From an uncultured Planctomycetales bacterium (GTDB lineage Bacteria > Omnitrophota > Gorgyraeia > Zapsychrales > JANLHA01): a stretch of DNA of 64,000 nt. The notes under the pieces are model-generated. The model was not told the DNA's origin and searched no databases. It worked only from the letters and a program-made list of their open reading frames with translations. Positions 2,120 through 43,458 of this stretch are shown here, in pieces (within the stretch, counting starts at the first letter, position 1; each line of letters begins with the position of its first letter). The translations under genes were made by a program, and so were the position numbers. The DNA lies in the NCBI GenBank assembly GCA_964374105.1, contig CAYJXI010000004.1, positions 13,202-77,201 of the forward strand, given 5' to 3'.

Positions 2120-3385
2120 ATGAAGGGGACATTAGAAAATCAAATAGTGAAAATGGCTAAGGCTGCTAAGCAGGCCTGTTTAAAGTTATCCCTTGTTCCT
2201 ACACAAGAGAAAAATAAGGCCCTGCAGGTGATGGTTGATTCTCTTATGATGAATAAAGACTATCTTTTTAAAGAGAATCAAAGAGACATTCATCAAGCTC
2301 ATAAGAATCGCTATTCCAAGGCTTTGATTGACCGTCTAACCCTCAATGAAAAACGGATCCAAGAAATGGCTCAATGCCTTCTGGAAACAGCTAAGTTAAA
2401 AGATCCGGTGGGGGAGGTGCTACAAACAATCACCCGGCCCAATGGTCTTAAGATTGAGAAGGTAAGAACCCCTCTAGGAGTCGTAGGAATCATTTATGAA
2501 TCTCGGCCCAATGTCACCAGTGATTGCATAGGCTTATGTTTGAAATCTGGGAATGCCGTGATCCTCAAAGGGGGAAAAGAGGCTTGTTATTCCAATCAGG
2601 CTATTTTTCATATTCTCAAAAAATCATTATCTCAAACTGCCATACCGCAAGAAGCCGTCCAATTGGTCCCTTCCCAAGACCGCAGGGCGGTCAATATCCT
2701 ACTAAGGTTAGATAAATATGTGGATGTGATGATCCCCCGGGGTGGAGAAAGCCTGATAAGCTTTGTGGCTCGACGTTCCTTGATCCCTGTCATTAAGCAC
2801 TATAAGGGAAATTGTCACACCTTTGTGAGTGATAAAGCCGACTTGAGGTTGGCTCAAACGATTTGTTTCAATGCCAAGGTCCAGCGACCGGCCACCTGCA
2901 ATGCGATGGAAACATTGCTCGTCCATCGGGCAGTTGCCTCGCAATTTTTACCGAATATGATTGTGGAATTTACAAAGGCCGGAGTGGAAATCCGTGGGTG
3001 TCCAATAACGCGCAAGGTCATCAAGGAAGGGATTAAAAAGGCAACTGAAAAAGATTGGTATGAAGAATATTTGGATTTGATTTTAGCCGTTAAGGTGGTT
3101 CATTCCCTTAAGGAGGCGATCGATCATATCAATACTTATGGGTCGCATCATTCCGATTGTATTGTGACGGAAGATAAACAAGAGGCGCAAGAATTCCTAA
3201 AGTCTGTTGATTCCGCCTGTCTTTATGTCAACGCCTCAACCCGCTTCACCGATGGATACCAATTTGGGATGGGGGCAGAAATTGGAATCAGCACCGACAA
3301 ATTACATGCCCGCGGACCGATGGCTTTGGAGGAGTTAACGACCTATAAATTCCTTATTTATGGTCAAGGACAAATCCGAGAGTAA
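2120..3385 (+). CDS. proA: Gamma-glutamyl phosphate reductase
   Basis: About 420-aa aldehyde-dehydrogenase-fold protein. It has typical ProA segments (VIYESRPNVT, catalytic Cys region NASTRFTDG) and is adjacent to proB. Confidence 0.85.
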   Translation: MKGTLENQIVKMAKAAKQACLKLSLVPTQEKNKALQVMVDSLMMNKDYLFKENQRDIHQAHKNRYSKALIDRLTLNEKRIQEMAQCLLETAKLKDPVGEVLQTITRPNGLKIEKVRTPLGVVGIIYESRPNVTSDCIGLCLKSGNAVILKGGKEACYSNQAIFHILKKSLSQTAIPQEAVQLVPSQDRRAVNILLRLDKYVDVMIPRGGESLISFVARRSLIPVIKHYKGNCHTFVSDKADLRLAQTICFNAKVQRPATCNAMETLLVHRAVASQFLPNMIVEFTKAGVEIRGCPITRKVIKEGIKKATEKDWYEEYLDLILAVKVVHSLKEAIDHINTYGSHHSDCIVTEDKQEAQEFLKSVDSACLYVNASTRFTDGYQFGMGAEIGISTDKLHARGPMALEELTTYKFLIYGQGQIRE

Positions 3386-6423: not shown

Positions 6424-9400
6424 TTGAGGTGTCAGAAAGTGATCAATTTTATTGAGCGCAAGCGAAACCCTAATATTTATCGTTTCATTACTGGATTTTT
6501 CTGTTTCTCTTTTTTTCTTAGTAGTATTATCCCGCCCTACTCTTTAAGTTACGCTCAGACTTTTCCTCAATATCTTCCCAACCAATTTCCTAATTTATCC
6601 GGTTATTCTATCCTTAATCTCCCAACCCCGGGAACAATGATAACGATGAGTGATGAATTTATCCCGGTCCTTGTCAAAGGAATTACCCTTTATCCTAATA
6701 ATCCACTCCAATTTGATTTTATTGTAGATACTGGTGATACAGATTTGGAAGGAGAAGAATTAAAGACAGAATCCAGTAAGTTGATCAAGTACTTTTTGGC
6801 CTCCCTTACCGTACCAGAAGAGGAATTATGGGTTAATTTATCCCCCTATGAAAAGGATCGGATCATTCCAGAAGGCTTAGGAATCACCGAAATGGGCAAG
6901 GACCTTCTGGCCCAGGATTATATTTTAAAACAATTAACTGCCTCGTTAATTTATCCTGAGAATGATTTGGGTAAAGAGTTTTGGGCACGAGTTTATAAGA
7001 AGGCACAAGAAAAGTACGGATCGACAAATATCCCCATTAATACCTTCAATAAGGTATGGATTCTTCCAGACCGGGCGGTTGTCTATGAACATGAGGGGAG
7101 TGCCTTTGTTGTTGAGCGTCATTTAAAAGTGATGCTCGAAGAAGATTATTTGAGTTTACAAAATAACCTGGGGAATGAAAAGCTGGGCACCCATCAACTT
7201 AAAGAAACCGATGTTAAAAACTTAAGCAACATTTCTGGTGAGGTGGTAAGAGAGGTGTTGATCCCGGAAATCGAAAAAGAAGTCAATGAGGGTAAAAACT
7301 TTGCTAACTTAAGGCAGATCTATAATTCCATGATCTTGGCGACATGGTATAAAAAGAATCTCAAAGAAAGCCTTTTGGGGCAAGTTTACATGGATCAGAA
7401 TAAAACCAAGGGTGTAGATGTTGACGACAAACTTATCAAACAAAAGATTTATGATCAATATATTGCCGCCTTTAAACAAGGTGTCTACAACTATATTAAG
7501 GAAGACGTTGACCCATTAACCCAAGATTTAATTCCCAAAAAATATTTTTCAGGAGGAGCCATGGGTGTCTGGGCAGAGCAATTGATTGAGCTGCAAGGAA
7601 GCCTGGAAAATCAACCTCCCCGGGTCGTGCAAGCGGTTACAAAACCTCGCGGCAAACATCGAAAGATCACCTGGGAAGCTTTAGATGTGGGAACCAATGC
7701 CAGACCTGAGGTGGTTGATGAGCTTGCAAAAGTTTTCCGTGGGCCAGCGATGCGGCTGTCCGGACTGGGATTAGATGAGAATCAGGAAAAGCTGGTTGAT
7801 GATACAATAGCCACCTATTTTGAAGGGGAAAGACTTAAAAGTGGCCGCCTTTTACTCCCACGGGATGAAGAATATCAACTCTTGGATCCCGATGGGGCCT
7901 TAAGGGATAATGGTGTCAAGATTTATCTTCTCCCGGGGTTAATCAACAAGATACTCCAGTTGGCGGATCAACGTAAAATTCTAAATCCCCCCATTGATCT
8001 TATTAGTCATCCTGGTCCTACCCGAAGAAATATTTATATTGATCCTGCTTATTTTGAATCCATATTGAAATTACAACCTAAAATCTGGCTCTCCCAATGG
8101 GCGGTCCATGAACTGGCGCATATCGAGCATCCTGAGGCGGAGGAAAAAGAAATTCTAAAAATGGCTCCGATTCCCGGGGTAACTCTTGCTGAAGAAAAAC
8201 CAGAAAGACTCAAATCCAAAGAGGAGCGTAAAAAACAAAAGGAATTTAAAAAACCAATCTTCAAGCGACCTGTTACGTTGAAGTCATCCATCCGCGAACT
8301 TGATTTTGGTCTTTTCCCTAATATTGCCCGGCCGGTGTATGCTTCTTTAGAGGAGGCAGGGATCAAAACCGTTGGCGATTTTAGGAACTGGACCGAAGAA
8401 GATCTCTCGAAGCTTAAATATATTAAAGGGAGAGTTGTCAAAAGAATCAAAGATACCTTGTTGAGAGAAGTCAAGGTGAAATTAAAAGGGGAAGAGGAGA
8501 AAAAAGCGAAGCCAGTGACAAAGAAAAAAAAGGAAGAAAAGACAGTTAAGGAAGAAGGGCCTATCACGCTAAAGTCCTCGATTCGACGGTTGAATTTGGG
8601 CAAGAGGCCATTTTCGGACAAAGTCTTTAAGGCCTTGGAATCGTCTGGGATTTTTACCATTAAAGACCTTAAAAATAAATCAGTAGAGGAATTGTTTAAG
8701 ATCAAGTGGATTGGAACGGATGTTGTGTTAAGGATAAAGACAGAATTGGTAAGAACGGTTGGGGAGAATTTAAAAGGCGAGGTATGGCCTGAAGTAAAGC
8801 CGGCGGTTAAGAAAGAGAAAAAGATTGATTTAACTGTCACAACCGAAACAGAAGGTTTTAGTGATGTCTATGGCAAGTCCTATTTGCAAGGGAACTCCGG
8901 TGTTTCCTTTACCAAGGTCCAGCTAAGAGAATTGATGGGCCGTTGGTCAGAGAAAGTTCCCTCTAAAGCTTCGGTCGCCCCGATTTCTTCCCGAATGACC
9001 ATGGGACTTTTTAATATTGGGTTGTTGGAGAGACTAGGCAATGGAACACCGGGACGACCTTATCAATACCGATTAGTCAGCTGGCTTCGGGAGAAGGCCT
9101 TAAAGTTGGATAATATCGAGGAGTGGTTAAGTTCTCAAGATCCCCGGCTCATCGAAAATGAATTGCAAAAGGCCCATGTTCGATATCGTAATATCCCTAA
9201 GGTTCAATCATTGGTCAAAAAATGGGAAAGAGATGTTAAGAAGGGTAAGGCACCGGCAAAAAAAGAGGTCGCAGCCGCAAGAATATTTGGACGTGTCCCT
9301 GGCTATACCATCTATGATGCCTTATTGGATATTATGTATTTAGAGAAGGAACTCAGTGGGAAAAAAGGAAAAGCCCCGCGAGTATCAGAAAAACAAGCCG

Positions 9401-12400
9401 TGGATTTAAAATTGACAACCGAAACTGAAGGCTTTAAAGATGTTATTGGAAAATCGGATTTGCAGAAAAAACCCGGGGTGACCTTTAATAAAAGACAGCT
9501 TATGCAATTTTGGGGACGATGGTCCAATGTCAAAAAAGTCCCAGGTAAAGAAGGGACGGCCTGGCGGGTGTTGATGGGGCTTTATTCGATTGGACTCCTT
9601 GAGGGGAAAAAGACAGATAAGGACTCCAAAATTTCCCAAGAATTTCGTTTGGTCAGTTGGTTAAGAGAAAAGGCACTGCGAGTCAAGGATATTGAAGAGT
9701 GGCTCATCTCCCAAGATCCTGAGCTCATTGAGGGAGAACTTAAAAAGGGCCATATCCAATATCGTGATTATAAAAGAGTTCGTAAGATTATTCAGCAATG
9801 GCAAAAAGATGTTAAACAAGGAAAGATTCCCAAGAGAAAAGAAATCCCGGAAGTGAAAAGAATGGGACGAGTTCCTGGGTATACCATTTATCATGCCTTA
9901 TTGGATATCATGAGCCTGGAAAAAGAATTAAGCAAAAAAGGAAAAGCTCCGGCCATGCGTTGGTCAGGATTGGAAATGGATGAGGGTCAAGAAAAGCTGG
10001 TGGATGATGCGGTTGCGAGTTATTTCGAAGGAGAGAAACTGATGGAAGGTCGATTGATCCTGCCGCGGGATGAAGAATTCAAGGTCCTGGATCCCGAAGG
10101 CGTCTTACGGGATAATGGGGTTAAGATATATTTTCTCCCCAATTTGATTGGTAAGATTACGCAGTTAGCCTCAGACCGTAAAATCAATAATCCCCCCATT
10201 GATCTTGTCAGTCACCCCGGTCGCACAAGAAGAAATATTTACATTGACTCAGCCTATTATGATTCAGTCTTAAAAAATCAAAGTAAGATTTGGAGAACGC
10301 AATGGGTTGCCCATGAACTGGCCCATATCGAAAACCCTGAGGCTGAGGAGATGACCATTCGAAAGATAGCTCCATTACCAACGGGTGAGAAAGTTGCTAA
10401 AGAAGCCCCTGTCAAACCGGAAAAGAAAAAAGCTGAAAAGAAAATAGAGAAACCTGAAAAACGAGAAGAAGAAAAGGAGAAGGTGGTAAAAGAAGAAGGG
10501 CTGATCACACTTAAGTCCTCGATTCGACGATTAGATTTTGGTCTTTTGCCAAATATTGCTGGACCTGTGTATGATTCTCTGGAGGAGGCGGGAATTAAAA
10601 CAGTGGAAGATCTCACTCAATGGAGCGAAGAAGATTTATTGAAGCTTAAATACATTAAGGCTAGTGTGCTACAGAGAATCAAAGATACATTATGGAAAGA
10701 AGTCAAAAAGAGATTAAAAGGGGAAGAGGAGAAAAAAGCGAAGCCAGAGAAAAAGAAGAAAGAAGAAAAGCCTATTGTGGAAGAAGGGCCGATAACGCTT
10801 GAGTCTTCGATTCGCAGATTGAATTTAGGGAAAAAACCATTTGTGTTGAAAGTCTACAAGGCCTTAGAATCAGCTGAGATTAAGACTATTGAGGATCTTA
10901 AGAATAAATCAGAAAATGAACTGTTAAAGATCAAGTGGATTGGGAAAGGAGTTGTGGCAAGAATAAAATCAGAACTGTTAAGCACGGTTGGGGAGACTTT
11001 AAAAGGCGAGGAGGTTAAAGAACCTCCTGAACCAATGGCTAAAAAGGGAGAGAAAAAAGAAGAGAAACCTCCCAAAAAAGAGAAACCGATTGACTTAACT
11101 GTTACAACCGAAACGCAAGGGTTTCAAGACATCTTTGGCAATCCCAATTTGCAAGGGAAACCCGGTGTGACCTTCACTAAAATCCAATTACAAGATTTAA
11201 TGGGGCGATGGTCAAATAAAGTTCCTTCTAAAGCTTCGGTAGCCCCGATTTCTTCCCGAATGACCATGGGGCTTTATAATGTTGGGTTACTCGAACGAAG
11301 AGGCAATGGTACCTCGCGAAGTCCTCATGAATATCGTCTGGTCAATTGGCTGAGGGAGAAAGGCTTAAAGTTGGATGATATTGAAGGGTGGTTAAATTCT
11401 CAGGATCCTGATTTAATGGAAAAAGAATTAGGCAAGGCCCATGTTCAATATGACGATCTCCCCAAGGTGCAAGAGTTGGTCAGAGCATGGAGGGTCCAAG
11501 TCGATTCTGGCAAAGCTGTAGAGAAAAAAGAACGTGAACCAGTCAAAAAATTTGGACGAATGGCCGGTTACACAATCTTTCATGCCCTGATTGATATCAT
11601 GAGTCTGGAAAAAGAATTAAGCAAACAAAAAGCTGAGGCTCCAAGCAAAGAGGCGGGTCCTAAGGTAGAAAAAAAGCCAAAGGAAAAAGAAAAGATTGCC
11701 AAACCCGGTACAACCCTACCGGAAAATGTCCTTAAGGCTTTACCATTTTTTGAAAAAATTTTGAAAAATCAAGTTACTGAAATTCCCCCAGAACAAATTC
11801 CTATTATGCGTGAGGTTTATAAGGATATTCTTCAAACATTTAGCAATATTAACGGTGATCCAGAAGCCTGGTTGAAGGCGCAGTTTAAGGTGGAAGAGGA
11901 TAACCTTGCGATTTTAATTTGGATCTATAATAAAAAACCAAAAATTGTCCAGTTTTTCTTGAAGGCATTGGAGGGAAGAGAAGAAGCCAAAAGAAAAAAA
12001 CCTATTAAAAAAGAGGAAGTCCCCAAGCCTGAAACAAAACCATTTTATCGAGAGAAGGGTGTACAACAATTTCTTGCGTCACCATCCTCGAAATTTATCC
12101 TTATATTCAATCAAAGCGGCTCAAAAAGAATTATTGATCTGAAGACCGCAGAGGATACGGGAATTCAGATTGAAGAGAAAGATGGGCCTAAGGCCCTAGA
12201 TGCAGTATTTTCACCAGAAGATCAATATCTAGTTGTTTGGTATGAATATGGGCCGGCTCGAATATGGGATTTAGAGAAGAAACAAGAACGCACGGATATT
12301 TCGATTGGCACCAACGAAGTCAGTCCGAAATTAATACCCGTCTTAGAACAAAGATATGGGAGGGGAACAGAAGCATTTAAACGTCAGCTGCGCAATGCCA

Positions 12401-15400
12401 AAGGTGTAAAAGCAGCCAAATTTTCCTTGGAAGGGAGGCGACTTTACATTCAGTATGCCAATTCCTTTGCCAAGGTGTTTGATGTGGAAACGGGTCAGGT
12501 CCTGGGTCCGGAGACAAAGACGCATGAACGGGCCATGTTTTCCCGCGATGGGACACTTTTAAAGGTTTGGCCTAAGCCAAAGAAGGGAGAAAGACGGGGG
12601 ATCTCCAAGCCAAATGTGATTGATATTAAGACTGGTGAGTTCAAGGGGGATCCTGGGAATGCCTTTGACTATGACGAGGAGGAAAATCCTCGTTTTGTTC
12701 ACCAAGTCCATGTTTATCCCCGTTTTTATGATCTGCCTCGTAAACCTATTTTCCTTAAAGTGTCACCCAATGGGAGATGGGTTTTATATTCGGATGGGCA
12801 AACTTATCTTCAAATATATGAGGTGGCGACAAAAAGGCTTCTTCCGATAACCTTTTCTAAAAATATCATTGATGGAAAAAGGGAGTTCCAAGTCGAGCCG
12901 ACCTTTACCGAGGATAACAAACTCCTTTTGAGTTTACGCCAATTTCGCGAAAGGATCTCAGGAAAACCCGATAGATGGGCAAGGTTAGATAGTCTGTTGA
13001 TTGATCTTGAGAACCCAACCGATATCAAAGAATTGCCCCGTAAGGCTTGGATTTCCTCAGATGGGAAGAAAATATTTGTTGTCACCAATATCGAACATGT
13101 TGAATCCGGCCCTCAATTACCTCGCCATCGCCTTTTGGAGGCCCTTGAGTTGAATGATACGGGTGTAGCTTTCCGGGATGATGTTAAATTAGAACTTCCT
13201 CAATTTACCTCCAATAGTAAAAAATTGATTGTCTATTTTGAAGATCAAGGGTTAGATGTGATTGATTTGGCTGTGGCCGAACCAAAGGTGATCAAAGAGG
13301 AAATTCTCCCGGAACCTGCGAAAGCAAAGGGTATTAAAGAAATTGACCTTGATGAATTCTTAAAAAAGATAGAAGGAACCCCTAATGATATCCCCTATAA
13401 AGTCTTGGATTGGATCACAGAGCAGAAAACACCCTTAAGATTTGAAGATCCCCCAAGGGCCCCACCGGTTTTTGAAGCTCTTTCTATTTACGATATCCCT
13501 GGGAAAGGAAGCCGATCCTTAGAGAAACTCTTAGAAGATAGCAAATTTCATAAACGGATAGGAGAGCATTTCATTTATCAAAGGGACGATGGGAGTTATT
13601 TGGTTATTCGATTCTTAAAAGAAGGGGAGGACCCTGGGCGGCTCCTCTATGAAAGCAAATGGTTTGATTATTTGCAGGAATTAAAGGACAGAGGGATAAA
13701 ACTCAATGGGAGTTACCCCAAAGCTGTCCTTTTAGACAATGAGCGGGTGGTGCGTTTAAGTCCACAGAAATTACCCGAAAGATTAGCAGATAACATACAA
13801 TTTTTTAAGGATGAGTCGGTTCAATTGCACTCAAGGGAGGAGGGGGATACATCTGGAATATCGATTTATACGCTTATGGCGTATAAAATCAGAGATTTGG
13901 ATTATGTGATTCCTTTGCCGGATGCCAAGCCCATTGACCAATCCATTCGGATCAACCTCCATGACTTATCTTTATTGCTTCGTTTGGGTTTGGTGAATCC
14001 AGAAATCATTAATCTTTTAAGCCGAAGCAGGATCAATGGGGGAGTGCATGAATCATTTTTGTGGATGGCGGAAATTTTACATGATGCCGAATGGAATAAA
14101 CGGGCAGAACGGCATAAGCTTTTTGAACTCGAAAGTTCGATCATCCAGGTCAAGATGAAGGCCAGTGGTCCTGGAAATTTTGCGGGTATGGTCAAGATCA
14201 ATGACTTAATCGAGTTGAAACCGCCGCTGGTGGATTTTAAGCAACTAGAAACCTATTCGGCGGATGATCGGACGAAACTTCTTTCTGTCTATTTTGTCGG
14301 GAATTATCTGATTGCAAGCATCTTAAGTGAGGCTAAAAGTTTACGGGAAGAATTTAAATTGAATGAGAATAGTCCTGACCATATGACAAAATTTGCCGAA
14401 CGTTTAAAATCAATCTATACAAACGCTTATGTATCCTTTAACAATAAACCAATACCCACCAAGATATTTTCTCTCATCAATTGGCAAGAATTGGCTCGAC
14501 AGATAGCTCAATTCATGACGGACAAGAGCCCTGAGGCGGTTAAACATCAAAGATTACCCTCGGAATTCCTCAAAGCCAACTATATTTTTACCGCCTTTAT
14601 GGTGGAAGATTTTGCCATGACCCATGGTAAAAGAGATCAGGCGATGTTGACAGGAATAGATTTAGAATCTGCCAAAGAGCAAGTCTCTTCCATACTGAGT
14701 GAATTTAATAATTGGGCACAGTCGTTTCGGGGGGAATATGATCCGGTCAAGTTATTCAGTGAAATTAGGGCGCAGATGACCACTTCTCAAGCATTGGCGG
14801 CATTTATCAAGCAAAATTTAGAAAAATTATTTCAGATCCGAAAGGAATTAACTGATAAAAAAGAGCTAGATAGTTTAAAGAGTTCGGTTTTAAGACAAAC
14901 CATTTCCAAATTGGATACACTTTTGTATCAATTGACTGGTGAACCGGCCTTCGTTTCTTTTGAAGGTTTTCTAGAGGCTTTTAGAGACAAGAAATCCCCA
15001 TTTTTTACATTAAAACCCGAAACAAGGTTAACCATCACCACCCAAGATACAAGGGAGTACAAATTCGCTTTTCGTCAATTTGATAATAACTTTGTCCCCA
15101 ACGCTATTTACGGGACAAAAGGAGAAACGGTTTACAATAACCATTACGGGCCAAAAGGAGAAGTCATTATCAGGGATTATATAACAAGCATTAAGGTCGG
15201 AATGGTTGATCAGGCGATAGTGACAAGGAAAGAACAACCCCCAACTCCAGGAACATTTACCAAAGGTGGGATTGATTTGAATCCAGAATTGCTAGATCTT
15301 CAAATCAAACGGGATGGGAAAGGAGTCCCGTTACCCTTGCTCCAACAACCTATCCAAGATATGAAGATTGAAGGCTTTTTACCGATCATCATCAATGTGG

Positions 15401-15582
15401 CGCCCGTCAACCTGCCTTTGCTTCTGGGAGTAGCGGAACCTGGAAAAAAGAAAGAAGACAAAGAGGCAGCACCTACCCCTCTGGATAGTGATTTAGGCTA
15501 TACGTCTCCTAGAGGCGTGGATTTGGTTAATAAGCGCTCAAAGAATTTCTATGCTAAGAAATTGAGTTTGGTCCTTCCTTAG
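6424..15582 (+). CDS. Giant (3052-aa) secreted or surface protein with internally duplicated modules. The true start is possibly GTG 6439, preceded by GAGGTG.
   Basis: Uninterrupted 9.16-kb ORF. The N-terminal hydrophobic signal-peptide-like segment is FFCFSFFLSSIIPPYSLSYA. It carries two HELAH-containing modules, four HhH modules resembling the RNAP alpha C-terminal domain, three copies of an approximately 190-aa module, a Lys/Glu-rich linker and a TolB/WD40-like region. It is followed by a strong intrinsic terminator. Confidence 0.8.
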   Translation: MRCQKVINFIERKRNPNIYRFITGFFCFSFFLSSIIPPYSLSYAQTFPQYLPNQFPNLSGYSILNLPTPGTMITMSDEFIPVLVKGITLYPNNPLQFDFIVDTGDTDLEGEELKTESSKLIKYFLASLTVPEEELWVNLSPYEKDRIIPEGLGITEMGKDLLAQDYILKQLTASLIYPENDLGKEFWARVYKKAQEKYGSTNIPINTFNKVWILPDRAVVYEHEGSAFVVERHLKVMLEEDYLSLQNNLGNEKLGTHQLKETDVKNLSNISGEVVREVLIPEIEKEVNEGKNFANLRQIYNSMILATWYKKNLKESLLGQVYMDQNKTKGVDVDDKLIKQKIYDQYIAAFKQGVYNYIKEDVDPLTQDLIPKKYFSGGAMGVWAEQLIELQGSLENQPPRVVQAVTKPRGKHRKITWEALDVGTNARPEVVDELAKVFRGPAMRLSGLGLDENQEKLVDDTIATYFEGERLKSGRLLLPRDEEYQLLDPDGALRDNGVKIYLLPGLINKILQLADQRKILNPPIDLISHPGPTRRNIYIDPAYFESILKLQPKIWLSQWAVHELAHIEHPEAEEKEILKMAPIPGVTLAEEKPERLKSKEERKKQKEFKKPIFKRPVTLKSSIRELDFGLFPNIARPVYASLEEAGIKTVGDFRNWTEEDLSKLKYIKGRVVKRIKDTLLREVKVKLKGEEEKKAKPVTKKKKEEKTVKEEGPITLKSSIRRLNLGKRPFSDKVFKALESSGIFTIKDLKNKSVEELFKIKWIGTDVVLRIKTELVRTVGENLKGEVWPEVKPAVKKEKKIDLTVTTETEGFSDVYGKSYLQGNSGVSFTKVQLRELMGRWSEKVPSKASVAPISSRMTMGLFNIGLLERLGNGTPGRPYQYRLVSWLREKALKLDNIEEWLSSQDPRLIENELQKAHVRYRNIPKVQSLVKKWERDVKKGKAPAKKEVAAARIFGRVPGYTIYDALLDIMYLEKELSGKKGKAPRVSEKQAVDLKLTTETEGFKDVIGKSDLQKKPGVTFNKRQLMQFWGRWSNVKKVPGKEGTAWRVLMGLYSIGLLEGKKTDKDSKISQEFRLVSWLREKALRVKDIEEWLISQDPELIEGELKKGHIQYRDYKRVRKIIQQWQKDVKQGKIPKRKEIPEVKRMGRVPGYTIYHALLDIMSLEKELSKKGKAPAMRWSGLEMDEGQEKLVDDAVASYFEGEKLMEGRLILPRDEEFKVLDPEGVLRDNGVKIYFLPNLIGKITQLASDRKINNPPIDLVSHPGRTRRNIYIDSAYYDSVLKNQSKIWRTQWVAHELAHIENPEAEEMTIRKIAPLPTGEKVAKEAPVKPEKKKAEKKIEKPEKREEEKEKVVKEEGLITLKSSIRRLDFGLLPNIAGPVYDSLEEAGIKTVEDLTQWSEEDLLKLKYIKASVLQRIKDTLWKEVKKRLKGEEEKKAKPEKKKKEEKPIVEEGPITLESSIRRLNLGKKPFVLKVYKALESAEIKTIEDLKNKSENELLKIKWIGKGVVARIKSELLSTVGETLKGEEVKEPPEPMAKKGEKKEEKPPKKEKPIDLTVTTETQGFQDIFGNPNLQGKPGVTFTKIQLQDLMGRWSNKVPSKASVAPISSRMTMGLYNVGLLERRGNGTSRSPHEYRLVNWLREKGLKLDDIEGWLNSQDPDLMEKELGKAHVQYDDLPKVQELVRAWRVQVDSGKAVEKKEREPVKKFGRMAGYTIFHALIDIMSLEKELSKQKAEAPSKEAGPKVEKKPKEKEKIAKPGTTLPENVLKALPFFEKILKNQVTEIPPEQIPIMREVYKDILQTFSNINGDPEAWLKAQFKVEEDNLAILIWIYNKKPKIVQFFLKALEGREEAKRKKPIKKEEVPKPETKPFYREKGVQQFLASPSSKFILIFNQSGSKRIIDLKTAEDTGIQIEEKDGPKALDAVFSPEDQYLVVWYEYGPARIWDLEKKQERTDISIGTNEVSPKLIPVLEQRYGRGTEAFKRQLRNAKGVKAAKFSLEGRRLYIQYANSFAKVFDVETGQVLGPETKTHERAMFSRDGTLLKVWPKPKKGERRGISKPNVIDIKTGEFKGDPGNAFDYDEEENPRFVHQVHVYPRFYDLPRKPIFLKVSPNGRWVLYSDGQTYLQIYEVATKRLLPITFSKNIIDGKREFQVEPTFTEDNKLLLSLRQFRERISGKPDRWARLDSLLIDLENPTDIKELPRKAWISSDGKKIFVVTNIEHVESGPQLPRHRLLEALELNDTGVAFRDDVKLELPQFTSNSKKLIVYFEDQGLDVIDLAVAEPKVIKEEILPEPAKAKGIKEIDLDEFLKKIEGTPNDIPYKVLDWITEQKTPLRFEDPPRAPPVFEALSIYDIPGKGSRSLEKLLEDSKFHKRIGEHFIYQRDDGSYLVIRFLKEGEDPGRLLYESKWFDYLQELKDRGIKLNGSYPKAVLLDNERVVRLSPQKLPERLADNIQFFKDESVQLHSREEGDTSGISIYTLMAYKIRDLDYVIPLPDAKPIDQSIRINLHDLSLLLRLGLVNPEIINLLSRSRINGGVHESFLWMAEILHDAEWNKRAERHKLFELESSIIQVKMKASGPGNFAGMVKINDLIELKPPLVDFKQLETYSADDRTKLLSVYFVGNYLIASILSEAKSLREEFKLNENSPDHMTKFAERLKSIYTNAYVSFNNKPIPTKIFSLINWQELARQIAQFMTDKSPEAVKHQRLPSEFLKANYIFTAFMVEDFAMTHGKRDQAMLTGIDLESAKEQVSSILSEFNNWAQSFRGEYDPVKLFSEIRAQMTTSQALAAFIKQNLEKLFQIRKELTDKKELDSLKSSVLRQTISKLDTLLYQLTGEPAFVSFEGFLEAFRDKKSPFFTLKPETRLTITTQDTREYKFAFRQFDNNFVPNAIYGTKGETVYNNHYGPKGEVIIRDYITSIKVGMVDQAIVTRKEQPPTPGTFTKGGIDLNPELLDLQIKRDGKGVPLPLLQQPIQDMKIEGFLPIIINVAPVNLPLLLGVAEPGKKKEDKEAAPTPLDSDLGYTSPRGVDLVNKRSKNFYAKKLSLVLP

Positions 15583-15611
15583 ATTGTTTGTTAAGGAGAT
15601 TTTTACTAAAG

Positions 15612-15640
15612 GCAACCTAAGATTTAGGTTGCTTTTTTTT
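15612..15640 (+). terminator. Rho-independent terminator of the giant gene
   Basis: GCAACCTAA-GAT-TTAGGTTGC: a 9-bp perfect stem and 3-nt loop followed by T8, located 30 nt after the stop codon. Confidence 0.8.
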
Positions 15641-15745
15641 ACTACAAAAAACCACCTCATGCCTACGAAAGCAGGCATCAACAAGAAGGACCTTATTACA
15701 CAAGAGTGGATTCCTGTTTACACAGGATTGACTCATAAAATTTAA

Positions 15746-15774
15746 TTGACAAATCAGTCTATTTTGCGATAATG
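15746..15774 (+). promoter_or_regulatory. Candidate sigma70-type promoter for rpsA
   Basis: TTGACA (15746-15751), a 16-nt spacer, then GATAAT. It lies about 85 nt upstream of the rpsA start. Confidence 0.35.
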
Positions 15775-15855: not shown

Positions 15856-17412
15856 ATGAATGAAAATCACCGTTCATCGTTAGAATCCCTGTATGACAGC
15901 ACTTTAAAGTCTATTCGGGAAGGAGAGATTGTCAAAGGAAATATTGTTGCCATCAGCAGAAGTGAGGTTGTGGTTGATATTGGTTTTAAATCGGAAGGTT
16001 TTGTCCCTATCGAAGAATTCCGAAACAAAGAAGATTTGGAAATCAACAAAGAGGTGGAAGTCCTTATTGAATCCGTTGAAGATGAAGAAGGCCGACTGGT
16101 TCTATCGAAGTTGAAAGCCGAGAGAGTTAAGGGATGGCAAAAATTTATGGTGGATATTAACGAAGGAGACATCGTGGAGGGACGTGTGATCAAATTGGTT
16201 AAGGGCGGTTATATGGTGGATATCAGTGGTGTGGAAGGGTTTCTCCCTATGTCTTTATCCGCTTTTAAAGGATATTCTTCGGACGCAATCATGTCGCATA
16301 AATATCGTTTCCAAGTAGCCAAGATCAATAAACAAAGACGGAATCTCATCCTTTCTCGTCGAGATGTTGTTCAGAAAGACCGGGATATGGTGAGGGAAAA
16401 ACTTTGGAGTGAATTGCAAAAAGGACAACGTCGTAAAGGAATCATCAAAGGGATTACCGATTTTGGAGCCTTCATTGATTTAGGTGGGGTAGATGGATTA
16501 TTGCATATTACGGATATGAGCTGGTCACGGATCAATCACCCTACCGAAATTGTCAAGGTGGGTGATCAAATTGAGGTGCTGATTTTAGATTTTGATAAAG
16601 AAAATTCAAAGGTCTCCTTAGGGTTAAAACAGATCACTTCCAATCCCTGGGAGGATATTTATGATAAATATCCGGCAGGGTCTAAGGTGAGGGGCAAAGT
16701 CGTTAACATCATGCCTTACGGTGTTTTTGTGGAAATAGATAAAGGGATTGAAGGGCTTCTTCACTCCTCGGAAGTTTCTTGGCAAAAGAAGCTTGTCAAC
16801 CCTCAGGAGATTTTTAAATTAGGAGATTTGATCGATGTTGTGATTATCAATGTGGATAAGGATTCTAAGCGGATAAGTTTAAGTATGAAACAGCTAGAAA
16901 ATAACCCTTGGTTGGAGGCACAGAAAAATTATCCTATCGGTACCAAAGTCAAAGGGACAGTCAGAGGTTTTACGGATTACGGGGCATTCGTTGAATTGGA
17001 ATCGGGCTTAGAGGGAATGATTCATGTCTCAGATATGTCTTGGACTAAAAAAGTAAACCATCCTCAAGATATCTTGCAAAAAGGACAACAAATTGAGGTA
17101 ATGGTCTTGGGTATTGATCCCGAGAATCGAAAGATCACCTTAGGGTTAAAACAGCTTTTTGAGAATCCCTGGCCGGAAATTGTCCAAAAATACCCGGTGG
17201 GTTCAGAGGTAGATGCCGAGGTCGTCTTAAATTCAAATTTTGGTGTTTTTGTGAGACTGGATGGGGAAGTGGAGGCCTTGGTTTACTCTTCGGAAATTGA
17301 TAAAGAACAAGCGGTCTCTTTAAAGCCAGGTGATAAATTAAGGGTTAAGATTATCAAAGTGGATGCGGAACAAATGAAGATTGGGGTAAGCACCCGGTTA
17401 TCTCCATCCTAA
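15856..17412 (+). CDS. rpsA: 30S ribosomal protein S1
   Basis: 518 aa with multiple tandem S1 (OB) domains carrying repeated GxV.G.V..I..fGaFV.l motifs. Confidence 0.85.
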   Translation: MNENHRSSLESLYDSTLKSIREGEIVKGNIVAISRSEVVVDIGFKSEGFVPIEEFRNKEDLEINKEVEVLIESVEDEEGRLVLSKLKAERVKGWQKFMVDINEGDIVEGRVIKLVKGGYMVDISGVEGFLPMSLSAFKGYSSDAIMSHKYRFQVAKINKQRRNLILSRRDVVQKDRDMVREKLWSELQKGQRRKGIIKGITDFGAFIDLGGVDGLLHITDMSWSRINHPTEIVKVGDQIEVLILDFDKENSKVSLGLKQITSNPWEDIYDKYPAGSKVRGKVVNIMPYGVFVEIDKGIEGLLHSSEVSWQKKLVNPQEIFKLGDLIDVVIINVDKDSKRISLSMKQLENNPWLEAQKNYPIGTKVKGTVRGFTDYGAFVELESGLEGMIHVSDMSWTKKVNHPQDILQKGQQIEVMVLGIDPENRKITLGLKQLFENPWPEIVQKYPVGSEVDAEVVLNSNFGVFVRLDGEVEALVYSSEIDKEQAVSLKPGDKLRVKIIKVDAEQMKIGVSTRLSPS

Positions 17413-17635: not shown

Positions 17636-18805
17636 ATGTCCATCAAAAGCATCATAGAGCAGATTAGACGCGGGACAACCGAGATTATCGATTTAGAGAA
17701 TTTAGAGGTAAAATTAAAGGAAAGCGTTGATCAAAAGAGGCCTCTACGAGTCAAAGCGGGTTTTGATCCCACGGCTCCAGACCTTCATTTGGGTCACGCG
17801 GTTTTATTGAAAAAATTACGGCAATTCCAAGATTTAGGCCATGATGTCTATTTTTTAATTGGTGATTTTACTGCACAAATTGGAGACCCCACTGGACGCG
17901 ATCATTTAAGGCCAAAGTTAACATTTGATAAAATTGAGGAAAATGCAAAAACGTACAAAAAACAAGTCTTTAAAATTTTGGATGAAAAAAAAACAATGGT
18001 TGTCCTCAATAGCGAATGGTTAAACAAATTATCCAGCATTCAATTATTAGAACTCGCCGCGCATTGCACCGTGGCCCAAATGTTGGCTCGGGCAGACTTT
18101 AAAAAGCGATTCGAGGAGAAAAAAGAGATAAGCCTTCTTGAATTCATTTACCCTTTACTGCAAGGGTATGATTCTGTTTATCTAAAGGCGGATATTGAAT
18201 GTGGAGGAGCAGATCAAAAATTCAATTTGCTTATGGGTCGCCACTTGCAAGAGATATTAGGACAATCTCCCCAGGTCATTATCATGACTCCTCTTCTAGA
18301 GGGAATAGATGGAACAAAAAAGATGAGTAAATCTTTAAATAATTACATTGGGGTCAATGAAAATCCCAATGAGATTTTTGGTAAGTTGATGTCCATTAAT
18401 GATGAGCTCATGTATAAGTATTATGAAAGTCTGACGGAATTTGATTTAAAGATAATCAAAAATCTTCATCCAAAGCAAGCGAAGCTACAATTAGCACAAG
18501 AAATAGTTCGGCAGTTTTACAATTTTAAGGAGGCGCAGAAAGCAAAGGTAAATTTTGAAAAAATTTTTAGTCAGAGACAAGTTCCTGAAATCATGAAGGA
18601 GTTTCGTTTGAAACATATTGGAAAAGAGAAACTATCTGATATTTTACTGAATACCAAGATTGTGGATTCAAAAAATGAGGTTAGACGACTTCTCAAACAA
18701 GGGGCTATTACCCATAATGGAGAAAAGATTCCTAATGAAGATTGGCAAATCAAGGAAGGGGTTATCAAGATAGGCAAAAGACGATTTCTCAAAATCATTT
18801 CCTAA
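17636..18805 (+). CDS. tyrS: Tyrosyl-tRNA synthetase
   Basis: HIGH-type motif (DLHLGHAV), KMSKS motif and a C-terminal S4-like RNA-binding domain; 389 aa. Confidence 0.8.
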
Positions 18806-19107: not shown

Positions 19108-19180
19108 GCCCCTGTAGCTCAGCCGGTAGAGCACGTCCTTGGTAAGGACGAGGCAACCGGTTCAAGTCCGGTCGGGGGCT
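19108..19180 (+). tRNA. tRNA-Thr (anticodon GGT)
   Basis: Hand-folded cloverleaf. Acceptor stem GCCCCTG/CGGGGGC (one G-U pair), D arm GCTC...GAGC, anticodon stem CGTCC/GGACG with loop TTGGTAA, T arm CCGGT-TCAAGTC-CGGTC. CCA is not encoded. Confidence 0.8.
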
Positions 19181-19493: not shown

Positions 19494-19570
19494 AGGCCTG
19501 TAGCTCTAACTGGTAGAGCAGCGGACTCCAAATCCGTTGGTTGTGGGTTCAAATCCTACCAGGCCTGCCA
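19494..19570 (+). tRNA. tRNA-Trp (anticodon CCA), 3' CCA encoded
   Basis: Acceptor AGGCCTG/CAGGCCT, anticodon stem GCGGA/TCCGT with loop CTCCAAA, T arm GTGGG-TTCAAAT-CCTAC, discriminator G, then CCA. Confidence 0.8.
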
Positions 19571-22782: not shown

Positions 22783-25700
22783 ATGGAAAAATTAAAAATC
22801 AAAAATTTCGGTAAAATCAAAGATGCATTTGAATTACCACAGCTTTTGGATATACAAGTCAAAGCCTATGAGAGCTTTCTGCAAATGGAGGTATCTCCGG
22901 AAAAGCGAAGTGATCAGGGCTTAGAAGAAGTTTTCCGGGAGGTTTTCCCATTGGAAAGTTATGATGGGCAAATAAAACTCGAATATATCAGTTATTTGCT
23001 TGGGAAACCGAAGTATTCCGATATGGAATGTCAGCGAAGAAACATGACCTATGCTGCTCCCTTAAAAGTAAAATTACGCCTCATTACCCCGGTTGACATA
23101 AAAGAGCAGGAGGTTTACTTTGGGGATTTCCCTTTGATGACAGAAACAGGAACCTTTATTATTAATGGGGATGAGAGGGTGGTGGTTTCTCAGATCCAAC
23201 GTCCGCCGGGGGTCTCTTTCGAGGAGGAAGTACATCCTACGGGAAAAAGTATTTATCATGGGCGGATTATCCCTTCCCGAGGGGCATGGTTTGAGGTGAA
23301 ATACGATCTTAACGATGTGCTGTTTGCTTATATTGATCGCCGCAGGAACTTTCCGGTGACCCAGATTTTAAGAATCATGGGGTTAGCAACGCCCGAAGAG
23401 ATGCAAAAGATGCTTGGGGAGGAGGATATTAATAAACTCAAGAATACCCTTGAGCGAGATCACACCACCAACAAGGAAGATGCCCTCCTAGATTTCTATC
23501 GGAAGATGCGGCCTACTGAACCGGCTACTGTGGAAGTTGCTCAGGCATTATTCTTCCGATTATTTTTTGACCCTAAACGATATGATTTAAGTAAAGTAGG
23601 ACGCCACATTATCAATCGAAAATTAGGAACCAATATCCCGCTGGAAAATCGAGTCTTGGATATCAATACGGTGGTAGCGGTTATCCGATATCTTTTTGGT
23701 TTAAGAGAAGGAAGAGGGGAAACAGACGATATTGACCATTTGGGCAATCGCCGGATCAAAACCGTAGGAGAACTCATCCAGAACCAGGTCAGGATTGGGT
23801 TGGCACGGTTGGAAAGATCCATCAAGGAACGGTTGGTCGTTATGAGTTCCTTTGAAAATCTAACCGCCCATCATTTGATTAATTCTCGTCTTTTCTCTAA
23901 TCAGATTCATGATTTTTTTGCCAGAAGTCAATTGTCACAATTCATGGATCAAGTCAACCCCCTTTCCGAAATGACCCACAAAAGAAGGTTAAGTGCTCTT
24001 GGGCCAGGAGGATTGTCCCGGGAGAGGGCGGGCTTTGAAGTGAGAGACGTTCATCCGACCCATTATGGCCGTGTTTGTCCTATCGAAACACCCGAAGGTC
24101 CTAATATTGGTCTTATTTCTTCTTTGACAACCTGTGCTCGAGTGAATGAATTGGGTTTTATTGAAACGCCGTATTACAAAGTGGAAGACGGCCGTCTGAC
24201 CAGGAAGATAGAATATTTAACCGCAGATGTCGATCAAGACAAACATATCGCCCCGGCCAGTGTCCAGGTTGATAAAGATGGACAATTCTTAGATAAGGAA
24301 ATCATTTGTCGGCATAAAACTGATTTTCCCAAAGTCAAACCTCAACAAATCGATTTTAAAGACGTTTCTCCAAAGCAGCTTGTTTCAGTAGCTACCTCCC
24401 TTATTCCTTTTTTAGAACATGATGATGCAAATCGCGCCCTGATGGGATCCAATATGCAGAGGCAAGCGGTTCCCTTGATGGTCACTGAAGTTCCTTATGT
24501 GGGAACAGGGATGGAGGAGAAGGTGGCAAGGGATTCGGGGGTGGTCGTGGTGGCCAGAGAATCAGGGAGAGTCAATAAGGTCGATGGGAAAGAGATTGTA
24601 ATTGGTGAGGAGGTTTATCAACTGAAGAATTTCATGCGTTCTAATGCTAATACTTGTGTCCACCAGAGACCTTTGGTTCAATTGGGGGATTATGTGGAGA
24701 AGGGACAGATTATTGCGGATGGAATGGCCACCCAAGATGGAAGAATTGCGTTGGGACGGAATGTGTTGGTGGCGTTTATGCCTTGGCGAGGGTATAACTT
24801 TGAGGATGCTATTCTGATCAATCAACATTTGGTTAGGGAAGATGTTTTTACCTCAATTCATGTTGAAAAATTTGAAATTGAAGCGAGAGAAACTCGCTTA
24901 GGCAATGAAGAGATTACCCGGGATATTCCCAATGTGGGTGAAGATGCCCTTAAGGATTTGACCGAAGAAGGTGTTGTTCGTATCGGAGCAGAGGTTAAAG
25001 CGGGGGATTATCTTGTTGGCAAAGTGACTCCCAAAAGCGAGAAGGAACTCTCTCCGGAAGAGAGGTTGTTGCGTGCAATTTTTGGGGAAAAGGCCGCTGA
25101 TATTCGCGATACTTCCTTGACCCTTCCTCCCGGAATAGAAGGTGTGATTGTAAATGCCGAGATCTTTCAGAGAACCGAGCGGGGCCGAAAATCAAAAGAA
25201 GATAAAGGGAAAGAAGTGGAAGCTCTTAAAAAAGTCAAAGAATATTTCCGCCAAGAAATTGAATTTATTGAAACCGAAAAGAACAAGAAATTAAGCAAGC
25301 TTTTGGGTATTGATGCAAAAAAGATTTCGAAAATCGACCTCAATGAATATTCCGCTGATACAGAAGTGCAAGAGATATTAAATTTCTTCAATGATAAGAT
25401 TGCAGAATTAGTGGAAGAAGAAGCCCAGGAGCTTGATCGGGCTAAACGAGGCGATGAATTACCTGCGGGAGTTATCAAAAGGGTGGTTGTCTATATAGCC
25501 ACCAAACGAAAGTTATCCGAAGGAGACAAGATGGCTGGTCGTCATGGGAATAAGGGAATTGTCTCTCGGATTCTCCCAGAGGAAGATATGCCTTATTTAG
25601 CCGATGGATCTGCTGTGGATATCATCCTCAATCCATTAGGGGTCCCTTCTCGTATGAATGTAGGGCAACTTCTGGAAACGCATTTGGGGTGGGCGGCGCA

Positions 25701-26277
25701 TGCGCTTGGTTTTTATGCAGAATCCCCAGTCTTCAACGGTGCGACAGAAGAGGAAATCCGCCAATTATTAAGGGAAGCGAATCTTCCCGAAGATGGTAAG
25801 ACAACTGTCTTTGATGGATTCACCGGAGAACAGTTTGATCAAAGAGTGACGGTTGGCTACATCTACATGCTAAAACTCAATCATTTGGTGGATGAAAAGA
25901 TTCATGCCCGTTCCATCGGACCATATTCTTTAGTGACCCAGCAGCCCTTAGGAGGAAAGGCCCATTTTGGTGGTCAAAGATTCGGAGAAATGGAGGTTTG
26001 GGCCTTAGAAGCTTATGGGGCGGCTTTTACTTTGCAGGAGATGTTGACCGTTAAAAGCGATGATGTCAAAGGAAGAAGTGAGATTTATGAAGCTATTGTT
26101 AAGGGTGAACAGAAATTGACAACGGGGGTCCCGGAATCTTTTAATGTTTTAGTCAAAGAATTACAAGGCCTGTGTTTGGATATTAAGCTCGATAAAGCCA
26201 ATGCCGAACCGGTTAAGGATGGGAAAAAAGAAAATAAGGATTTGTTAAGGGAAAAAGAAAAGGAGAAGAAAAGGTAA
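22783..26277 (+). CDS. rpoB: DNA-directed RNA polymerase subunit beta
   Basis: 1164 aa with conserved beta segments (rifampicin cluster [23 protein letters not shown] active-site region). Confidence 0.95.
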
Positions 26278-42790: not shown

Positions 42791-42849
42791 TTTTTCGTTT
42801 ATTTTTAAAACTTAAGGAAAGGCATTAAAAGCCGAAAGGTCAAAAGGAA

Positions 42850-43458
42850 ATGAGCAAGGAAAGAAGGTTAAAAAGCGAAAATTTGAGTAAAGAAGAGCCT
42901 CGGCCGGTAAGAAAAAGGGAGCTTAAACAGCCTGACCTAAAGGAAGAACTCATTGAGTCAGAAGTGGTGGCGAAACCCGAAGTGAGCCAGCGCCCTCCCG
43001 CAAGGATCCGGACAGCAGAGATAGCAGAATTTTTTGAAAATGTTGTTGCCATCAATCGGATCACCAAAGTCACAAAAGGAGGGAAGAAATTATCTTTTAG
43101 TGCTTTGGTGGTGGTGGGAGATACAAAAGGACGCGTGGGATATTGTTTAGAAAAAGCCGGGGAGGTGGCCATGGCCATCAAAAAGGCCTTGGCAGGAGCT
43201 AAGAAGAATTTGATTAACGTTCCTTTAAAAGGGACAACAATTCCGCACGAGATTATTGGAGTTTGTGGAGGAGCAGAAGTTTTATTGAAGCCTGCGGCCG
43301 AAGGGACAGGGGTTATCGCTGCTGGACCGGTTCGGGCGGTGTGTGAAGGGGCAGGGATCCACAACATATTGTCCAAATGTCATCGATCAAATAATCCCAT
43401 CAATGTCGTTAAGGCTACGATCGATGGGTTAAGTCGTTTAAAATCTGCAAACAATTAA
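42850..43458 (+). CDS. rpsE: 30S ribosomal protein S5 (with about 35-aa basic/acidic N-terminal extension)
   Basis: Core [24 protein letters not shown] (dsRBD) and the C-terminal domain are present; 202 aa against the usual 166. Confidence 0.85.

Follow-up and report, generated by a model that had tools for sequence, protein, structure and literature searches.

A giant, cysteine-poor Omnitrophota protein joins alpha-CTD-type domains to the constant head and tail of a large signal-peptide-bearing protein family

We have analyzed a stretch of 64,000 nucleotides (referred to as the window) from an uncultured bacterium that is deposited as Planctomycetales and placed by GTDB in the Omnitrophota (assembly GCA_964374105.1, contig CAYJXI010000004.1, positions 13,202 to 77,201 of the forward strand). 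At positions 6424..15582 of its plus strand lies an open reading frame (ORF) of 3052 codons counted from a TTG, the sole long ORF at that place, whose product we call the giant protein; its residue numbers count from this TTG (3052 amino acids, aa) unless stated as from GTG. The giant protein is one member of a very large family in which a signal peptide, a constant N-terminal domain (head), and a short constant C-terminal module (tail) enclose a cargo that differs from member to member and is almost devoid of cysteine. We cautiously favor the view that it is exported and sorted to the cell envelope with the aid of head and tail as shared modules, and that a polyanion, probably DNA, is the ligand of its own cargo. 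What makes the family interesting is the cassette of constant ends together with the cysteine-purged, enzyme-rich cargo set; the gene described here is one member, with an orphan cargo of DNA-binding type.

Constant Ends and Variable Cargo

More than 1,673 proteins with lengths of 1.7–5.3 kaa (thousand aa) matched in a full-length search, and they share sequence with the query only at aa ~6–400 and ~2945–3005. With a profile of the head, searched against 1.84 billion representatives and counted as clusters at 50% identity, 8,350, 7,907, and 6,684 clusters were obtained at E ≤ 1e-3, 1e-10, and 1e-30, respectively, the head always occupying residues 1–370. GTDB species representatives contain at least 584 head-encoding places, several per metagenome-assembled genome (MAG), as exemplified by six contigs of isolate OFTM38 and five loci of SMAG_U7936. 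The family appears to be restricted to Omnitrophota: among the matches listed, organism-bearing source names are all Omnitrophica/Omnitrophota, one source saying only ‘hydrothermal vent metagenome’, and the titled GTDB records are Omnitrophota as well, save some labelled ‘uncultured Planctomycetales’ or just ‘bacterium’. A first-pass annotation of the window, made from the letters alone, had stated that nothing comparable was a named family. The absence of a named family held, as neither head, tail (CTERM models included), nor the cargo modules A and B described below match anything in Pfam or NCBIfam at E ≤ 10 (curated libraries dated 2025–2026); the absence of anything comparable is overturned by the numbers above.

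In a scan of 78 fetched related loci plus the window with hidden Markov models (HMMs), a head was identified in 112 ORFs and a tail in 82, of which 71 contained the two together. Heads and tails never occurred more than once per ORF, the head was always first and the tail always last, and each intact member combined one head and one tail with a different cargo. Complete members measure 774–3,350 aa and others run off their loci at more than 3,700 aa; the family as a whole spans ~0.8 to >5.3 kaa. The idea that the giants are fused arrays of head-tail units could be rejected for the loci at hand, since no ORF carries a second head or tail. According to precomputed Pfam assignments, the cargo of paralogs includes PGK, GAPDH, glucose-6-phosphate isomerase, TIM, phosphoglucomutase, enolase, hexokinase, and FBPase, further isocitrate lyase/malate synthase, PPDK-type, UDP-glucose pyrophosphorylase, and starch synthase domains, and, finally, response-regulator receiver, GGDEF, DnaJ, HEAT, M48 peptidase, and ABC1 kinase domains.

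The head (~330 aa) is ~60% identical between members (49–60% between the query and other members), and its HMM matches the query at aa 7–393. The motifs NPLxFDF, WVNLSPYE, TEMGRDLLAQDY, NTFNKVWI, and ...KYFSGG are all present in the query, 60 columns are invariant among 32 members picked for diversity, and conservation ends abruptly after ...IPRKYFSGG. What had been described as an unrecognizable N-domain of about 440 aa is thus better described as a constant N-domain of ~375 aa that is the hallmark of a very large family. A search of PDB sequences with the head profile gave zero matches, and the predicted head model, a mixed alpha/beta structure with a predicted local distance difference test score (pLDDT) of 65, matches no known fold.

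The tail core (GGIDLNPELLDLQIKRDGKGVPLPLLQQPIQDMKIEGFLPIIINVAPVNLPLLLG in the giant protein) comprises ~57 aa with the consensus vGGIDLNPALLDLQIKRDGNGVPLPLpQQPI..M.IEGFlPVIINITPvtNLPLLLG. Its HMM matches the query at aa 2947–3003 of 3052, the region ~2945–3005 being ~65% identical to family members. The tail lies at the extreme C-terminus in 117 of 119 homologues, and each of the 82 tail-bearing ORFs of the HMM scan carries it C-terminally. It contains the most hydrophobic 19-mer of the giant protein (Kyte-Doolittle value 1.97 versus 1.67 for the signal peptide), and across the family this hydrophobic stretch carries ~3 prolines. Beyond the tail follows an extension of 0–60 aa in the family, acidic in 102 of 118 members with a median net charge of −3, which in many members closes with a loosely conserved ...ELSLLN-type end. 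The last 130 aa of the giant protein have no Pfam match at E ≤ 10. It is correct, as annotated previously, that the protein has neither an LPXTG nor a PEP-CTERM end; the existence of a conserved C-terminal module means, however, that the notion of a protein without any sorting-type end was wrong in spirit.

The cargo is bracketed by invariant Gly-Gly pairs, ...YFSGG (7555–7557) on the head side and GGIDLN... (15262–15267) on the tail side, and conservation stops and starts exactly there. These boundaries may represent hinges or processing sites. Cleavage of the double-glycine type by a C39 peptidase was considered but appears doubtful, since the residues preceding the Gly-Gly depart from the leader consensus.

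At the level of loci, tandem arrays are common, with up to three head-cargo-tail genes separated by tiny or overlapping gaps (L019, L039, L040, L047, L074), which suggests that the family expanded through local duplications and a subsequent exchange of the cargo. At five further loci (L008, L017, L036, L052, L077), a head-only and a tail-only ORF are adjacent or overlap; these pairs are apparently frameshifted genes, reflecting either sequencing errors or real decay of paralogs. No recurrent partner gene was found in flanks of 10 kb at the 78 loci other than the window, at most seven of which share one neighbor.

Signal Peptide and Cysteine Depletion

Across the whole family the N-terminal ~38 residues show the canonical pattern of a signal peptide. 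Position −1 is Ala in 114 of 116 sequences, position −3 is A, S, G, or V, and position +1 is Gln in 103 of 116; the median uncharged stretch measures 21 aa and the median net charge of the n-region is +3. In the giant protein, the corresponding SYA↓Q occupies residues 37–40 counted from GTG. The hydrophobic N-terminus noted in the first-pass annotation as resembling a signal peptide is real.

Cysteine accounts for 0.062% of 174,927 residues in family ORFs versus 1.21% in 336 neighboring ORFs of the same MAGs, a depletion of ~20-fold; the housekeeping proteins of the window contain 0.99%. Among 120 members the median cysteine content is 0.00%, and 69 lack any cysteine after the signal peptide. 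The sole cysteine of the giant protein, C22, lies within the signal peptide. The protein thus combines all traits of the family, namely an A↓Q signal peptide, one head, one tail, and near-zero cysteine. Such a cysteine-poor composition is typical of extracytoplasmic proteins in bacteria without a disulfide-forming system, and also of passengers that cross the envelope unfolded, as in autotransporter and RTX proteins.

The GAPDH-bearing members are instructive in this respect. Two of the three examined have kept the catalytic cysteine of the ASCTTN motif (P0013, residues 600–603; P0018, residue 3220), while the motif was not found in the third, P0079. Almost every other cysteine has been lost from GAPDH-bearing members of 2–5 kaa. 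The presence of the catalytic residue among the few cysteines remaining in P0013 and P0018 argues that the cargo enzymes would be active and that dispensable cysteines have been selected against.

Cargo of the Giant Protein

Self-comparison revealed that a super-module at aa 433–985 recurs at aa 1168–1741 with 60–75% identity, confirming the duplicated super-modules recognized earlier. Each consists of a module A with a HELAH motif, two domains of the RNA polymerase alpha C-terminal domain (alpha-CTD; RNA_pol_A_CTD/HHH_5) type, which are tandem helix-hairpin-helix folds, (HhH)2, and a module B; an extra copy of module B is located at aa 993–1177 (Table 1). The four alpha-CTD-type domains had been overlooked in the earlier list of domains.

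Table 1. Features of the giant gene and its immediate surroundings, in window coordinates.
Feature	Position	Strand	Basis
Shine-Dalgarno-like GAGGTG	6426..6431	+	7 nt 5’ of probable GTG start; read from sequence
Sec-type signal peptide, 39 aa, predicted signal peptidase I cleavage SYA↓Q	6439..6555	+	homologue starts and family statistics
Constant head domain, ends at invariant ...KYFSGG	6556..7557	+	family alignment
Module A copy 1 (~150 aa, HELAH)	7720..8259	+	self-similarity
Alpha-CTD-type (HhH)2 domain 1	8269..8532	+	
Alpha-CTD-type (HhH)2 domain 2	8557..8820	+	Pfam profile, self-comparison, fold match, E. coli alignment
Module B copy 1 (~190 aa, basic, no family)	8821..9378	+	three internal copies
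Module B copy 2	9400..9954	+	self-comparison; 52–61% identical to copy 1
Module A copy 2 (HELAH)	9925..10473	+	self-comparison
Alpha-CTD-type (HhH)2 domain 3	10498..10734	+	Pfam profile, self-comparison, E. coli alignment
Alpha-CTD-type (HhH)2 domain 4	10786..11019	+	Pfam profile, self-comparison, E. coli alignment
Module B copy 3	11089..11646	+	self-comparison
Beta-propeller-like region, eight ‘xS.DG..L’ blade-like motifs	12064..13308	+	motif listing; sub-threshold WD40 matches
Atypical protein-kinase-like region (FLK, YE, INLHD, SGPGNFAG)	13480..14526	+	weak NCBIfam match; P0119 alignment
Constant tail core	15262..15432	+	family alignment and HMM
Variable C-terminal extension, 49 aa and stop codon	15433..15582	+	family comparison
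Intrinsic terminator	15608..15644	+	13-bp stem at 15608–15636, loop, T-run; 3’ of stop codon

The Pfam profile PF03118 (RNA_pol_A_CTD) scores 81.7 bits over four stretches of the giant protein, versus a threshold of 23.8. The predicted (HhH)2 domains are compact and superpose on solved alpha-CTDs; in the AlphaFold model of the first super-module, module A has pLDDT values of 75–89 and the two alpha-CTD-type domains of 70–87, module B remaining below 50. The ‘265 determinant’ of the E. coli alpha-CTD, which consists of R265, N268, G296, K298, and S299, appears to be partly retained: by alignment to the E. coli reference sequence, an Arg equivalent to R265 occurs in all four copies and an Asn equivalent to N268 in two, the second hairpin being only partly alignable. 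All four copies carry an insertion of 12–13 aa after the first helix. Identity as an RpoA subunit was rejected, since rpoA equivalog models cover only the C-terminal ~80 positions with 60 bits versus a cut-off of 228–277. The domains are arranged as two pairs with Lys-rich linkers, and the net charge of the giant protein is +56, with the excess residing in the alpha-CTD pairs (+20 and +8) and the B modules. On these grounds we infer that the cargo of this member is nucleic-acid-oriented and that its ligand would be a polyanion, most plausibly DNA. Among the functions previously considered for giant surface proteins (adhesion, predation, host attachment, binding of extracellular DNA), the assignable part of the cargo appears to fit the last better than adhesion.

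Module A has homologues in P0028 and, as four copies, in P0007. A peptidase function seems doubtful because the Glu and His of its HExxH signature are not conserved in P0007; moreover, no peptidase model matches the module and none of the top fold matches listed could be attributed to it despite pLDDT values of 75–89. Module B yielded no homologue in searches of family members, related loci, and metagenomes. The beta-propeller-like segment suggested earlier (aa 1881–2295) stands as far as its eight blade-like motifs are concerned; matches to WD40-type profiles are all sub-threshold (E 0.005–0.1). The region at aa 2353–2701 weakly matches a SidJ-related pseudokinase model of NCBIfam (E 2e-4, 20 bits versus a cut-off of 300) and is 27% identical over 375 aa to the region preceding the tail of P0119, with FLK, YE, IN(L/I)HD, and SGPx(D/N)FAG conserved. 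At the DFG-like position, the query has Asn where Asp is found in P0119. This would be in line with an atypical, possibly inactive, kinase-like domain.

When the cargo alone (aa 430–2935) was used as query, a single, weakly matching S8-peptidase protein was the sole result apart from the giant protein; Lys/Glu-rich linkers had probably swamped the word filter. Two metagenome scans, one with the C-terminal cargo and one with module B, found no close relatives, jackhmmer searches of the B modules, the linker, and the propeller-like and kinase-like regions against the 120 members and the ORFs of related loci found no relatives, and phmmer searches of the latter two regions against PDB sequences gave noise only.

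Integrity of the Reading Frame

The single uninterrupted ORF of 9.16 kb described in the first-pass annotation is real and intact. By our own arithmetic, with ~6% stop codons expected at 41% GC, the chance of 3052 stop-free codons is ~1e-84. A second assembly, GCA_947085705.1, contains the same gene in the same gene order with 2980 of 2981 aa identical and two mismatches in 25.6 kb. Of course, an ORF with internal duplications calls for caution, and mis-assembly or gene decay has to be considered. The duplicates are, however, only 71–78% identical in DNA and no tandem repeats were found within the ORF, which makes repeat collapse unlikely; the second assembly agrees, and head and tail are correctly sited at opposite ends of one frame. 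We consider mis-assembly or decay very unlikely, to the point that an assembly artefact or decaying pseudogene may be disregarded as an explanation of the ORF.

While the extent of the ORF had been given correctly, the length of 3052 aa has to be modified. The true start is probably GTG 6439, giving a product of 3047 aa, because GAGGTG precedes it by 7 nt and 72 of 115 homologues align exactly from that residue (offset 0). The public gene call (P0001/P0226, 2981 aa) begins at the internal Met72 and thereby omits the signal peptide together with the first part of the head (6424–6636).

Discussion

The reading that we favor, with some caution, can be spelled out as follows. The giant protein would be translated from its own transcript, exported through the Sec pathway, and cleaved by signal peptidase I after Ala39 (counted from GTG), as the family statistics suggest, so that the bulk of the protein leaves the cytoplasm. 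The purge of cysteine would reflect extracytoplasmic life, or unfolded transit through the envelope, in an organism without a disulfide-forming system. Head and tail would act as address or anchoring modules: since thousands of proteins with unrelated cargo have retained them at ~60% identity, and no recurrent partner gene accompanies them, they should serve one shared step, be it recognition by a single envelope or secretion machine, binding to a conserved envelope component, or head-to-tail assembly. In the present member, the two alpha-CTD-type pairs on their Lys-rich linkers would bind a polyanionic polymer, for which DNA is the most plausible candidate, either on the cell surface or in a zone of cell-cell contact, and the basic B modules, the propeller-like platform, and the kinase-like domain may assist in ligand binding; the two HExxH-containing A modules would be part of the same cargo.

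Several points weigh against this reading. A hydrophobic tail stretch with ~3 prolines followed by an acidic flank has no counterpart among known C-terminal sorting signals. Confidence in the head model is no more than moderate, and as this model matches no known fold it gives no clue to function. The present cargo is an orphan and, as homologues did not emerge from our searches, conservation cannot back its function. Finally, paralogs carry domains (PGK, GAPDH, GGDEF, receiver, J) that depend on ATP, GTP, NAD, or cytoplasmic partners, and it is difficult to see how these would operate in the periplasm or outside the cell.

This last difficulty leads to a more far-reaching version, to which we assign a low probability, namely that the cassette represents an undescribed Omnitrophota sorting or delivery system that exports competent cytoplasmic-type modules to a contact zone or into the cytoplasm of a host or prey, with head and tail as the modules recognized by the machine. 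In its specific form as an effector system, the cassette would deliver active cytoplasmic-type cargo into the cytoplasm of prey or host, and the present member would bind prey DNA or the transcription machinery via its alpha-CTD-type domains. We regard this as unlikely. Several points speak for it. The cargo needs a compartment with nucleotides (PGK, GAPDH with its catalytic Cys, PGI, TIM, enolase, hexokinase, PPDK, GGDEF, receiver, J) and all of it sits behind canonical signal peptides, a paradox that delivery would resolve; the cysteine purge fits unfolded transit, the weak SidJ-like kinase match recalls effector-type domains, and Omnitrophota have been reported to be predatory or host-dependent epibionts (PMC10066038; 10.1101/2023.11.21.568195). 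On the other hand, no translocon was identified, no known injection signal is present, and no neighbor gene is conserved (maximum 7 of 78 loci). Glycolytic enzymes located on bacterial surfaces can, furthermore, moonlight as binders.

A self-assembling coat, in which different paralogs would join up through contacts between their heads and tails to build an extracellular heteropolymeric layer with diverse cargo, the present member adding DNA binding, is in our view improbable. Constant ends around a free middle, many paralogs per genome, and the lack of a dedicated partner gene nearby would be in line with such an arrangement, and an extracellular ‘coat’ made of a giant protein has been proposed for Velamenicoccus archaeovorus, as summarized in PMC10066038; in that summary, however, the coat is ascribed to a different protein of 39,678 aa.

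Rather less probable still is a cytoplasmic scaffold tethered to the inner membrane, with the N-terminal segment and/or the tail as uncleaved anchors and, in the present case, a role in transcription or at the nucleoid for a scaffold whose gene lies next to rpsA and rpoBC. The cargo of paralogs is indeed of cytoplasmic type, the alpha-CTD is normally a cytoplasmic transcription module, and about half of the long Omnitrophota proteins are predicted to be transmembrane-anchored with cytoplasmic domains (10.64898/2026.06.07.730766). Yet the positive n-region, the small residues at −3 and −1, and the invariant Ala-Gln site after helix-breaking prolines point to an N-in, cleaved signal, the ~20-fold depletion of cysteine has no rationale in the cytoplasm, and an acidic flank follows the hydrophobic segment of the tail.

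Membership in an established secretion or anchoring class (autotransporter, trimeric autotransporter, type IX secretion system (T9SS) cargo, RTX adhesin of type I secretion, LPXTG or PEP-CTERM protein) is very improbable: the general resemblance (signal peptide, very long passenger, conserved C-terminal element) and the low cysteine content shared with autotransporter and RTX passengers are outweighed by the lack of any Pfam or NCBIfam model of these classes matching head or tail at E ≤ 10 or across the whole protein, by a tail too short for a monomeric barrel, and by the 0–60 variable, acidic rather than basic, residues that follow it in place of an aromatic beta-signal end. In particular, the last 130 aa match no autotransporter or trimeric autotransporter barrel model (PF03797, PF03895) at E ≤ 10, the tail does not match a Por_Secre_tail-type domain of T9SS cargo, and a sortase or exosortase signal is at odds with the acidic flank in 102 of 118 members, the ~3 prolines, and the lack of a match to the CTERM models of NCBIfam.

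Combining variable cargo with a constant sorting module is a principle already known from T9SS, sortase/exosortase, autotransporter, and polymorphic toxin systems; the cassette described here is absent from the curated libraries that we searched. With T9SS cargo of Bacteroidota it shares a constant C-terminal module on unrelated exported proteins and many paralogs per genome, whereas T9SS cargo lacks a constant N-terminal domain and the present tail has fewer residues, is strongly hydrophobic, and continues into a variable extension. The LPXTG, PEP-CTERM, and GlyGly-CTERM signals (sortase, exosortase, and rhombosortase, respectively) likewise combine a motif and a subsequent hydrophobic stretch near the C-terminus of signal-peptide-bearing proteins, but their motif has 3–5 aa and a basic flank as opposed to ~35 aa, ~3 prolines, and an acidic flank here. 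Exoproteins of two-partner secretion (TPS) and contact-dependent inhibition systems as well as polymorphic toxins also place a constant N-terminal module on many payloads; in our family the head matches neither a TPS nor a haemagglutination-activity domain, its model is mixed alpha/beta and not a beta-helix, and the payload lies between the head and a tail that is constant as well. By way of analogy only, spidroins are a multigene family with conserved N- and C-terminal domains around a highly variable core, which in their case is repetitive structural sequence instead of enzymes, in unrelated organisms and with unrelated sequences. As for the RNA polymerase alpha-CTD itself (PF03118), four domains of the giant protein exceed the Pfam threshold and superpose on solved structures, but they occur without the alpha N-terminal domain, in pairs inside a putatively exported giant, with an insertion of 12–13 aa and a partly conserved ‘265 determinant’.

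The closest precedent comes from the same phylum. For Omnitrophota proteins of at least 10 kaa, ‘multi-enzyme metabolic’ content, signal peptides, transmembrane segments, and a topology paradox have been described (Nielsen & Lui 2026, 10.64898/2026.06.07.730766; West-Roberts et al. 2023, 10.1101/2023.11.21.568195), and earlier work dealt with Archaeovorin- and dockerin-type giants for which post-translational cleavage was suggested. These very long proteins share with our family the phylum, signal peptides plus hydrophobic segments, cargo such as sugar-metabolism enzymes, receiver, and HEAT domains, and the placement of cytoplasmic-type enzymes behind export signals; they differ in that they were studied at 10–30 kaa and above and sorted by Pfam content and topology, compared with ~0.8 to >5.3 kaa here. 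Neither a conserved head or tail nor a depletion of cysteine was found described in the searchable literature, which did not cover Kizina et al. 2022.

The Omnitrophota, a widespread group of ultra-small bacteria that probably prey on other cells or depend on a host, encode huge proteins in large numbers that still await an explanation; surveys published recently report enzymes of cytoplasmic type following export signals but propose no organizing principle. The head/tail signature identifies the whole cargo set of any Omnitrophota genome, and the two short modules can be used for tagging, deletion, antibodies, or as bait for the machinery. Many ‘glycolytic enzymes’ in metabolic reconstructions of Omnitrophota MAGs may be cargo of exported proteins. 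Gene callers cut off the signal peptide, as with the present gene, and this would hide export signals in automated surveys. If delivery were to take place, some of the metabolism and regulation of these nanobacteria would be carried out beyond the confines of their own cytoplasm.

Genomic Context and Minor Observations

The housekeeping neighborhood between plsC and rpsA reported in the first-pass annotation is borne out by NCBIfam, which identifies obg, proB, proA, nadD, a PGM/PMM-type mutase, and a plsC-type acyltransferase on the 5’ side and rpsA and tyrS on the 3’ side. The notion that the gene had been inserted there did not find support: GC content and GC skew of the giant ORF match those of its neighbors and thus give no sign of recent insertion. 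Neither plsC nor rpsA was found beside a family gene at the other, related loci. A spacer of 224 nt precedes the giant gene, the strong intrinsic terminator noted earlier at its end was recovered, and a promoter-like sigma-70 site with an 11/12 match and an extended TG lies in front of rpsA (15746–15773). In view of this terminator and promoter-like site, the giant gene most likely forms its own transcription unit, and co-transcription with rpsA appears unlikely.

In the second assembly (L079 1–1234; GCA_947085705.1, contig CAMTXN010000025.1), a gene for a GspD-type secretin, followed by RNase E/G and rplU, lies just 5’ of obg. It is the nearest envelope-machinery gene, ~9 kb upstream of the giant gene and outside the window, and its proximity may be coincidental.

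The only Rfam matches in the window are tRNA-Thr(GGT) at 19108–19180 and tRNA-Trp(CCA) at 19494–19570, both located between tyrS and ORFs that match nusG-rplK-rplA-rplJ-rplL-rpoB by gene order in L079; the 1164-aa product of 22783–26277 is RpoB by correspondence with that locus. For RpsA (15856–17412), TyrS (17636–18805), and the products of 22783–26277 and 33335–34531, the latter presumably EF-Tu, mates in clusters at 90% identity come only from the two near-identical assemblies. As the clusters of these four housekeeping products hold no further mates, the lineage is very sparsely sampled, in agreement with the earlier surmise of a poorly studied, uncultivated lineage. In our own analysis, the window is assigned to the Omnitrophota indirectly, through the membership of the giant protein in the head-tail family.

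All ORFs of at least 150 aa in the window lie on the plus strand except one short overlapping ORF (42840–43376), and the cumulative GC skew rises throughout positions 1–22000 (22 kb profiled). Strand distribution and skew indicate an extreme gene-strand bias, a feature known from complete Omnitrophota genomes (10.1101/2023.11.21.568195).

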